From Escherichia phage LF82-1: DNA of 64,000 nt. The notes beneath the pieces were generated by a model, which did no database searches, was not told the DNA's origin, and saw only the letters and a list, made by a program, of their open reading frames with translations. The stretch lies in sequence record PV648359; one strand, written 5' to 3'. Made by a program: the position numbers and the translations under genes. Positions 7,704-7,748 of the stretch are shown here, one piece after another; position 1 is the stretch's first letter; each line of letters starts with the position of its first letter.

Positions 7704-7748
7704 TTTATTATCCAACGAGAGCATTATACTCTGCTCTCAAGAGTTTGT
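7704..7748 (-). promoter_or_regulatory. 45-bp repeat copy A: stem-loop (GAGAGCA…TGCTCTC) enclosing a TATAAT -10 element
   Basis: Matches 37567..37611 with one mismatch; TATAAT lies in the loop of a 7-bp inverted repeat. Confidence 0.5.

Follow-up and report, generated by a model that had tools for sequence, protein, structure and literature searches.

Why does the genome of a T-even phage carry the same 45 bp twice, some 30 kb apart, in front of two unrelated genes? In the 64,000-nucleotide stretch of DNA analysed here (hereafter, the window), the original prediction described this repeat as a promoter combined with a stem-loop and suggested that it might be a mobile or recombinogenic regulatory cassette. 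Our results point to a likely answer, namely, that the repeat is a compact control cassette of T-even early genes that unites a promoter, a hairpin whose loop contains the −10 hexamer and a RegB site, and doubles as a recombination patch. Under this interpretation, most of the apparent oddity of the locus is cleared up and no new class of element is needed. Genome-wide searches were performed on the record of phage LF82-2 (PV648360.1; 169,999 bp), the last 64 kb of which are 100% identical to the window; its close relatives are assigned to Mosigvirus, the RB69-like group of T-even phages.

The repeated element and its downstream genes

When up to three mismatches were allowed, the 45-mer matched the 64-kb window only at 7704-7748 (no mismatches) and 37567-37611 (one mismatch), and 100 dinucleotide-preserving shuffles of the window gave no match at the same threshold, which confirms the predicted duplication. 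Because the genes around it are on the minus strand, the element must be read on that strand, where it runs ACAAACTCT-TGAGAGCA-GAGTATAA-TGCTCTC(G/A)-TT-GGATAATAAA. As predicted, it contains the inverted repeat GAGAGCA/TGCTCTC and the TATAAT hexamer, the latter of which reads on the minus, i.e. coding, strand. When the flanks of the two copies are compared on this strand, sequence identity ends abruptly at both ends of the 45-mer.

Copy 1 (7704..7748, minus strand), which comprises a promoter spacer, the hairpin that encloses the −10 and a RegB-type site, lies upstream of the ortholog of T4 55.2 (7353..7685, minus strand; DUF7570, Pfam PF24454), whose product shows 77% amino-acid identity to T4 gp55.2 (E = 3e-64). 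Copy 2 (37567..37611, minus strand) lies upstream of the ortholog of the T-even gene e.6 (36951..37544, minus strand), a coiled-coil protein of phrog_1203 that is annotated as e.6 in T2 and KIT03. The two proteins share no relationship, so that each copy indeed precedes an unrelated gene, and the distance from the element to the minus-strand ATG is 18 bp for copy 1 (ATG at 7685) and 22 bp for copy 2 (ATG at 37544). An in-frame ATG at 7724, which serves as the 55.2 start in the LF82-2 record, was rejected because it falls inside the −10 hexamer and neither the T4 nor the PhAPEC2 gene model includes it. In terms of annotation, the 55.2 ortholog thus receives a start codon other than that given in this record, and copy 1 is marked as a promoter impaired by the insertion of an open reading frame.

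The search for further copies that had been proposed as a check found two more in the LF82-2 genome, both outside the window: a third copy with six mismatches upstream of ndd, and a diverged fourth copy before a gene in the pseT (polynucleotide kinase) region, in which the stem is altered in a compensatory manner (AGGAGCA/TGCTCCT). LF82-2 thus has four copies of the element in total, before 55.2, e.6, ndd and the gene in the pseT region. In BLAST searches, the element was detected in 719 phage records, mostly at one place per record in Tequatroviruses (T4, T2, T6) and at three or four places in Mosigviruses.

Promoter signals

In both copies, the orientation and position of the element, just before early-region genes, are those of a T4-type early promoter. 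Such a promoter combines a −35 of the GTTTAC/TTTACA type, a spacer of 17 ± 1 nt and TATAAT, and copy 2 has all of these, whereas copy 1 alone does not. Specifically, copy 2 carries a complete early promoter, TTTACA-17-TATAAT (37586..37614, minus strand), which scored 11 of 12 matches in the consensus scan, in agreement with the predicted −35 at 17-nt spacing, and is preceded by an A-rich stretch; AAAAAATAA is located immediately upstream. In copy 1, the same region is the 3′ end of an inserted open reading frame. The −10 hexamer of copy 1 is TATAAT (7723..7728, minus strand), but its −35 position reads CGCACA (3/6), and because of this, copy 1 was not called in the promoter consensus scan. The PhAPEC2 ortholog of the copy 1 site retains an intact ATTTAC −35. 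The loss of the −35 in copy 1 was missing from the original account of the locus, as was the RegB/S1 consensus in the 3′ third of the repeat that is described below; as judged from these sequences, the promoter of copy 1 is probably weakened.

The predicted transcription start is the seventh base past the −10, that is, the base directly after the 3′ arm of the inverted repeat: G at 7716 in copy 1 and A at 37579 in copy 2. The equivalent site in phage DalCa is annotated as a promoter, and the start of the T4 motB promoter has been mapped by primer extension (Durand 2006). By virtue of its sequence, the element would be expected to act as a sigma-70 early promoter in LF82-2. Other promoters are located farther upstream, at 37899-37871 and 8468-8440, and because copy 1 has lost both its −35 and its putative UP region, the 55.2 ortholog probably relies more heavily on read-through from upstream.

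A hairpin around the −10 hexamer under selection

In copy 1, the inverted repeat forms the hairpin UGAGAGCA - GAGUAUAA - UGCUCUCG (7716..7739, minus strand), with seven Watson-Crick pairs, a closing U-G pair and a predicted RNA folding energy of −12.6 kcal/mol (z = −3.2). The counterpart in copy 2, UGAGAGCA - GAGUAUAA - UGCUCUCA (37579..37602, minus strand), has eight Watson-Crick pairs and a predicted energy of −13.8 kcal/mol (z = −4.0). Because the predicted start falls directly after the 3′ arm, a transcript initiated by the element itself would lack the hairpin; since this transcript begins past the inverted repeat, hairpin RNA would form only in read-through transcripts. No Rfam family was found at the element, and only two tRNAs pass the gathering thresholds in the whole window.

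Pattern scans of IMG/VR yielded about 30 distinct family members, and covariation was assessed on a gapless alignment of 20 of them. Standard pairs accounted for 98.1% of the stem cells in this alignment, five of the eight pairs were changed on both sides, and none of 500 shuffles of the 20-member alignment matched the observed pairing or covariation score. When the 3′ partners were slid by one to three columns, pairing dropped to 34-54%. The 15 distinct stem variants, which include GAGAGC, GAGAGA, GGGACC, GGGAGC, GGGAGT, GGGGTC and GGGGCC, together contain 105 Watson-Crick, 13 G-U and one A-C cells. As a negative control for stem pairing, we kept the results of a loose anchor scan of IMG/VR (ACAAACTCT-N11-TATAAT), which returned mostly unrelated sigma-70 promoters: none of about 130 such promoters with the same anchor showed 7/7 pairing, compared to 7/7 in all family members except phiE142 (6/7). 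A separate IMG/VR scan that added the downstream GGA was swamped by one unrelated phage family.

The covariation shows that the inverted repeat around the −10 of a T-even early promoter is under selection as a structure, a feature for which the T4 reviews consulted offer just the mention of 'additional regions of consensus' in early promoters. Because the G-U pairs can be read as such on the sense strand alone, the structure appears to be favoured on that strand. Judging from this pattern, the hairpin is a selected structure, probably in RNA and less likely in the non-template DNA strand, although tolerance of G-T on the sense strand alone would also fit a hairpin in the latter. The consensus scan, together with the folding and covariation results, bears out the initial reading of the repeat as a regulatory element composed of a promoter and a stem-loop.

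Relationship to the GTTTAC early promoters

The claim that the element is distinct from the GTTTAC family is, in contrast, contradicted by our results. Most family members have GTTTAC or GTGTAC at the −35, and the T4 counterpart is a GTTTAC early promoter. Furthermore, a genome-wide enumeration showed that about half of the credible GTTTAC-type promoters of this phage have a strong inverted repeat around the −10, such that the loop includes the start of the −10 and the 3′ arm finishes near +1; TAGGACTA-tgtTATAGT-AGTCCTA and TTGGTACAGGT...ACCTGTACCAA are two examples. The predicted sense-strand folds of these other promoters reach −11 to −19 kcal/mol and are often far better than the antisense folds. 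Near-identity between distant sites is not confined to the 45-mer either, as other promoter sub-families are also near-identical over at least 30 bp at distant sites, for example, GTTTACAACCAAGGATGGTTGGAGTATAAT at record positions 80980 and 122336.

Thus, the other GTTTAC promoters of LF82-2 resemble the element in the type of −35, the spacing and the placement of the inverted repeat. They differ from it in that their stem and spacer sequences are others and that no GGA(G/U)-A-rich site directly follows the stem; several of them instead have a RegB-type site as their Shine-Dalgarno sequence, 8-20 nt further on. Because the −35 of most family members is GTTTAC or GTGTAC and the hairpin layout is shared with other GTTTAC promoters, the element is one sub-family of ordinary GTTTAC early promoters rather than a separate class.

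Terminator, DNA structure or operator

If the inverted repeat is maintained as a structure, its function could still lie elsewhere than in our proposal. The hairpin could act mainly as a terminator or attenuator of the upstream gene, so that the element would be a terminator-promoter pair, as first proposed for the PeSL cassettes of T4-type phages. In the PeSL papers, one RB49 stem-loop is reported to have reduced downstream lacZ expression about as much as rrnB T1, and stem-loops are allowed to overlap the −10; the hairpin in the window is also stable and selected on the sense strand. However, the combination of a G+C-rich hairpin with a U-tract, which defines an intrinsic (Rho-independent) terminator, is found in neither copy: no T-run follows the element (GUUGGAUAAUAAA), and the hairpin tails read GUUGGAUAAU and AUUGGAUAAU. 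Accordingly, the terminator scan called neither copy, even though it did call the true terminator at 36925-36942, and the terminator prediction in the annotation of genome G2469 passes over the site of the element. Moreover, copy 1 lacks a −35, hence expression of 55.2 would require read-through across the hairpin. Taking these observations into account, we consider a predominantly terminating role possible, but not the explanation to be favoured.

Alternatively, the inverted repeat might act in DNA, either as a cruciform or a non-template hairpin that opens the −10 or as a target of the phage recombination machinery. The presence of an inverted repeat centred on the −10 in about half of the GTTTAC promoters of the genome is compatible with such a role, as is the fact that G-T is the least destabilising mismatch in DNA. 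In addition, the PeSL papers describe crossovers of RB49 mini-circles that mapped within the stem-loop. Nevertheless, the non-Watson-Crick cells are nearly all sense-strand G-T (13, against one A-C), whereas a symmetric cruciform would favour neither strand. With arms of 7-8 bp and an 8-nt loop, the repeat would also extrude poorly as a cruciform, and we regard an action in DNA as quite unlikely.

The palindrome could, finally, be the operator at which a dimeric DNA-binding repressor silences early promoters, given that it overlaps the −10 and that, according to the literature, it is not fully understood how T4 shuts off its early promoters. This reading is very improbable and was rejected because the arm sequence varies (GAGAGC, GAGAGA, GGGACC, GGGAGC, GGGAGT and GGGGTC in the family, and TAGGACTA in other promoter classes) whereas complementarity is kept; conservation of arm complementarity alone indicates that a structure is maintained rather than a sequence recognised by a protein.

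A RegB/S1-type site next to the hairpin

Beyond the hairpin, the 3′ part of the element, GGATAATAAA(A/C), fits the published consensus of RegB/S1 sites. The target of RegB is the 11-nt sequence GGAGRAYARAA, for which motB mRNA served as the model substrate (Durand 2006). The copy 1 site, GGATAATAAAA (7703..7713, minus strand; GGAUAAUAAAA as RNA), is a strict match in which all consensus positions fit, with U at position 4. The copy 2 site, GGATAATAAAC (37566..37576, minus strand; GGAUAAUAAAC as RNA), differs from it at position 11 only, where C instead of A takes it off the consensus. RegB itself is encoded in the window (27085..27543, minus strand; Pfam PF10715, E = 1.5e-68) and is expected to act on GGA(G/U)-A-rich sites. 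Genome-wide, a loosened site pattern in which position 5 may also be U and position 11 may also be C matched the early-gene strand at 12 places and the other strand at one.

Behind the invariant GGA of RegB sites, both window copies have U, the rarer base there, rather than G at position 4. Most GGAU sites are resistant to RegB: of the 30 intergenic ones assayed in T4, none was cleaved except those of 55.2 and motB.2 (Durand 2006). In the T4 sequence, these two cut sites both read GGAUAAUAAAA and are thus identical to the copy 1 site; the 55.2 site lies in the leader, two bases past a UUCG hairpin, and the motB.2 site is the Shine-Dalgarno sequence. By analogy with these 11-mers of known cleavage, we infer that RegB would also cut in LF82-2. 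The GGAG of motB that is cut by RegB must be the one within the T4 counterpart of the element, because Durand 2006 gives U at position 5, in the sequence GGAGUAUAAAA. As predicted by folding, the probability that the RegB sites of the window are unpaired ranges from 0.08 to 0.98, varying with the base and the transcript folded.

A third instance of TTGGATAATAAA, the dodecamer at the 3′ end of the element, is found at 36911-36922, right after the canonical terminator that ends the e.6 transcript. In this composite feature (36911..36942, minus strand), a terminator hairpin at 36925-36942 and UUUU are followed by GGAUAAUAAAG, so that the same dodecamer stands behind a different hairpin. With this occurrence, the arrangement of a hairpin, 2-4 nt, GGA(G/U) and an A-rich run is seen with three kinds of hairpin. 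The inclusion of a RegB/S1 site as a fixed part of the cassette, 2-3 nt past the hairpin, ties the modular shuffling of PeSLs to T4 mRNA decay.

Breakpoints of homology at the element

The comparison of flanking genes across relatives, another check proposed at the outset, revealed that homology breaks off at 7748 and, around copy 2, at the borders of the element. The BLAST homology of PhAPEC2-type phages to the window starts exactly at 7748, the first base of the repeat, and in PhAPEC2 (another Mosigvirus), a 55.3-like gene is followed directly by the intact element, CGATTTACAAACTCTTGAGAGCA.... At this junction, the window has a cassette of about 314 bp (7749..8062, minus strand) that is absent from PhAPEC2 and L131-type phages and contains a 79-aa open reading frame (7752-7991) and a degenerate promoter-hairpin (8009-8035). 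The cassette separates the two halves of the former −35 of copy 1; in other words, copy 1 lost its −35 because the cassette was inserted within it. Similarly, an IMG/VR contig (L152) has an extra open reading frame at the −35 of the copy 2 element, between two promoter-like sequences that share ACAAAC. The homology of Tequatroviruses to the e.6 region begins at the 5′ edge of the element in KIT03, at the −10 in T2 and just before the Shine-Dalgarno sequence in T4. Finally, some members share both the element and its upstream flanks but differ in the gene that follows, for example, L149 and L158, and likewise L128 compared to L156 and L130.

Although intergenic regions diverge quickly anyway, breakpoints at the element edges are suggestive of recombination at these places. 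In addition, three Mosigvirus copies have the GAGAGC stem in common, whereas the orthologous 55.2 and e.6 sites in other genera have GGGACC or GGGAGT; the shared stem hints at gene conversion or concerted evolution between dispersed promoters. Of the two properties proposed originally, the recombinogenic one is supported, given that the element sits at homology breakpoints in the manner of PeSLs, and self-mobility is not, given that the sites before 55.2, e.6, ndd and motB are orthologous across genera. The near-identity of copies 30 kb apart before unrelated genes might suggest an autonomous mobile element of the miniature transposon or homing type, or else a functionless chance duplicate, but both readings are scarcely credible and were rejected, as chance is excluded by the 100 shuffles without a match, terminal repeats and target duplications are lacking, the element is always in gene orientation 18-45 bp before the start codon, and it occupies orthologous positions in different genera (before 55.2 in PhAPEC2 and L131-type phages, before e.6 in KIT03 and before motB in T4).

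A model of cassette function

The anatomy of the element, its covariation, its conservation across genera, the breakpoints at its edges and the match to the RegB consensus can be combined in a simple model; promoter activity, read-through, the role of the hairpin and RegB cleavage are the steps that the model supplies for this phage. Under this model, transcription from the sigma-70 early promoter would begin at the G or A right after the 3′ arm. RNA that reads through from upstream would instead contain the 7-8 bp hairpin, which has the −10 as part of its loop but lacks a U-tract. Rather than being a classical terminator, this hairpin would mark and protect the 3′ end of the upstream message and perhaps attenuate read-through. 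Two to three bases past the hairpin, the 11-nt RegB/S1 site, GGAUAAUAAA(A/C), would be cut between G and A by the RegB encoded in the window, separating the upstream message, which would then end at the hairpin, from the downstream message; in promoter-initiated transcripts, the cut would remove the triphosphate 5′ end.

The probable fates of the fragments are suggested by work on T4. RegB leaves a 3′-phosphate and a 5′-OH; the upstream piece is attacked by host 3′ exonucleases, and the downstream piece is degraded via T4 PNK followed by RNase G/E (T4 literature). A hairpin just 5′ of the RegB cut would be well placed to halt the 3′ exonucleases, and by analogy with T4, the cut transcripts would enter decay that depends on PNK and RNase G/E. 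At the DNA level, the approximately 45 bp of shared sequence would provide a patch of homology at which general recombination could swap, insert or convert neighbouring cassettes, as in the mechanism put forward for PeSLs. Such a role would account for the near-identity of copies 30 kb apart and for the breakpoints at the element edges.

A more elaborate version of the model, which we consider doubtful, holds that the three parts form a single switch, with the fate of each transcript set by where it started. Read-through RNA would fold into the hairpin and, in members with GGAG, also pair this GGAG with the spacer CUCU, so that the RegB site would be masked and the upstream 3′ end protected. 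Promoter-started RNA, which has no 5′ arm, would expose the RegB site at +3, lose its triphosphate end and be rapidly degraded. The switch would account for the invariance of the spacer AAACTCT across genera, and if it exists, it adds to the PeSL cassettes a layer of RNA decay that is not mentioned in the accessible text of the PeSL papers or the two T4 reviews. In folding predictions, the GGAG of T4 motB and other members with GGAG pairs with the spacer CUCU in read-through RNA, where its unpaired probability is at most 0.11, compared to 0.65-0.79 for T4 motB in the transcript of the promoter itself; for such members, the predictions support masking. In promoter-initiated RNA, the site is predicted to be mostly free (0.5-0.96) in T4 motB, L155 and L133, and the two G's stay paired in L149 and L061. 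For the GGAU copies of the window, the masking predictions are inconsistent and unsupportive, and because of this, masking was not adopted as the main explanation. Our literature search found no genome-wide map of transcription starts or 3′ ends for T4 or RB69-like phages.

Comparison with known systems

Every component of the proposed early-gene cassette is of a kind already described in T4-type phages, and its T4 motB counterpart is in standard use as a substrate in experiments. The promoter and leader of T4 motB have the same architecture as the element and share about 85% of its sequence: GTTTACAAACTCTTGGGACCAGAGTATAATGGTCCCGTGGAGTATAAAA comprises the −35, the invariant AAACTCT spacer, the hairpin that encloses the −10, and GGA(G/U) with an A-rich run 2-3 nt past the stem. 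The differences are that motB is another gene, that the stem is GGGACC/GGTCCC rather than GAGAGC/GCTCTC, and that the site is GGAG as opposed to GGAU in the window. In read-through RNA, the motB GGAG is predicted to pair with the spacer CUCU, whereas no consistent prediction is obtained for the window copies.

The T4 55.2 leader, which belongs to the gene orthologous to that behind copy 1, has the identical 11-mer GGAUAAUAAAA two bases past a hairpin. However, that hairpin, a terminator with a UUCG tetraloop and a U-run, contains no embedded promoter.

A further parallel is with the PeSL cassettes of RB49/phi1, PST/T4 and nt-1/KVP40 (Arbiol 2010; Comeau 2014). According to these papers, PeSLs, like our element, join a sigma-70-like early promoter to a stem-loop, separate the small ORFs found in hyperplastic regions, finish with a Shine-Dalgarno sequence and start codon, and mark junctions of indels or replacements; a subclass in which the stem-loop overlaps the −10 is described there as well, with the ndd region among the examples. 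As in PeSL motifs, which span about 50-100 bp, the element combines a promoter and a stable stem-loop; it is repeated between small ORFs of hyperplastic regions (the four LF82-2 copies) and coincides with indels or replacements between close relatives (the cassette with the 79-aa ORF, the L152 ORF and the homology breaks). In contrast, the stem-loop of PeSLs is called a terminator in these papers, whereas the LF82-2 element has no U-tract. Moreover, the element includes a RegB-type site as a conserved, built-in component, and none is mentioned for PeSLs in the portions of these two papers accessible to us.

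Repeated and hairpin-bearing early promoters

In addition to the 45-bp early promoter/hairpin repeat, we detected a second promoter pair, GTTTACAACCAAGGATGGTTGGAGTATAAT...TCTATCTTAAC, that is nearly identical across approximately 45 bp at two far-apart sites, with the first base of the −10 at 16337 in the window (minus strand) and at position 80980 of the full LF82-2 genome record, outside the window. Therefore, dispersed near-identical promoters are common in this genome.

The GTTTAC early promoters include a large class in which inverted repeats of 8-12 bp surround the −10, with arm pairs such as TAGGACTA...TAGTCCTA and AGGTCTAT...ATAGACCT. 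In the window, the −10 of these promoters begins at 18999, 22874, 33721, 35016 and 41907, all on the minus strand; further members lie outside it, at record positions 49687, 69723 and 70235. For RNA of the sense strand, predicted folds go down to −19 kcal/mol; owing to G-U pairs, they are often far more stable than their antisense counterparts.

A 10-bp hairpin, GGTAGGAAGA-TAACACT-TCTTCCTACC (8009-8035, minus strand), is located immediately 5' of the 79-aa ORF of the cassette inserted upstream of copy 1 of the 45-bp repeat, and is preceded by the −35-like hexamer GTTTAT. In the counterpart from phage phiE142, the loop holds a TAACAT −10 that is deleted from the window version. Because this deletion takes out the −10, the hairpin looks like a degraded promoter-hairpin.

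Additional signals in the window

The transcript of the e.6 ortholog, the gene downstream of copy 2, ends in a canonical terminator with the hairpin GGAGGAC-UCCG-GUCCUCC and a UUUU tail. Directly behind it lie GGAUAAUAAAG, a dodecamer that is also present in the 45-bp repeat, and then the Shine-Dalgarno sequence AAGGAG of the next gene (terminator and dodecamer, 36911-36942, minus strand). The only Rfam matches in the whole window are two tRNA genes (39906-40057, minus strand).

The RegB pattern is matched by GGATGATAGAA at 5270-5280 (minus strand) and at record position 77553. This sequence is preceded by a terminator and the MotA-box-like TTTGCTTTA, and it is more likely to belong to a middle promoter, as its −10 region (TAGAAT), than to be a RegB site.

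An abundant but unrelated group of metagenomic phage contigs in IMG/VR carries CCCGCTTTACAAACTCTGCCNCCTATGCTATAAT-NN-ACATAGGAGA-N5-8-ATG (loci L013, L015, L019, L031, L044 and about 65 others). There, too, the −10 is bracketed by an inverted repeat, CCTATG/CATAGG, with the 3' arm overlapping the Shine-Dalgarno sequence.

Start codon of the 55.2 ortholog

In the LF82-2 GenBank record, the coding sequence of the 55.2 ortholog, the gene downstream of copy 1, starts with the ATG at 7724 (minus strand), within the −10 and hairpin of that copy, which adds 13 residues (7686-7724). This longer version probably reflects a misannotation. Both T4 gp55.2 and the gene model of PhAPEC2, another Mosigvirus, begin at the counterpart of the ATG at 7685, which is served by the Shine-Dalgarno sequence GAGGAAA.
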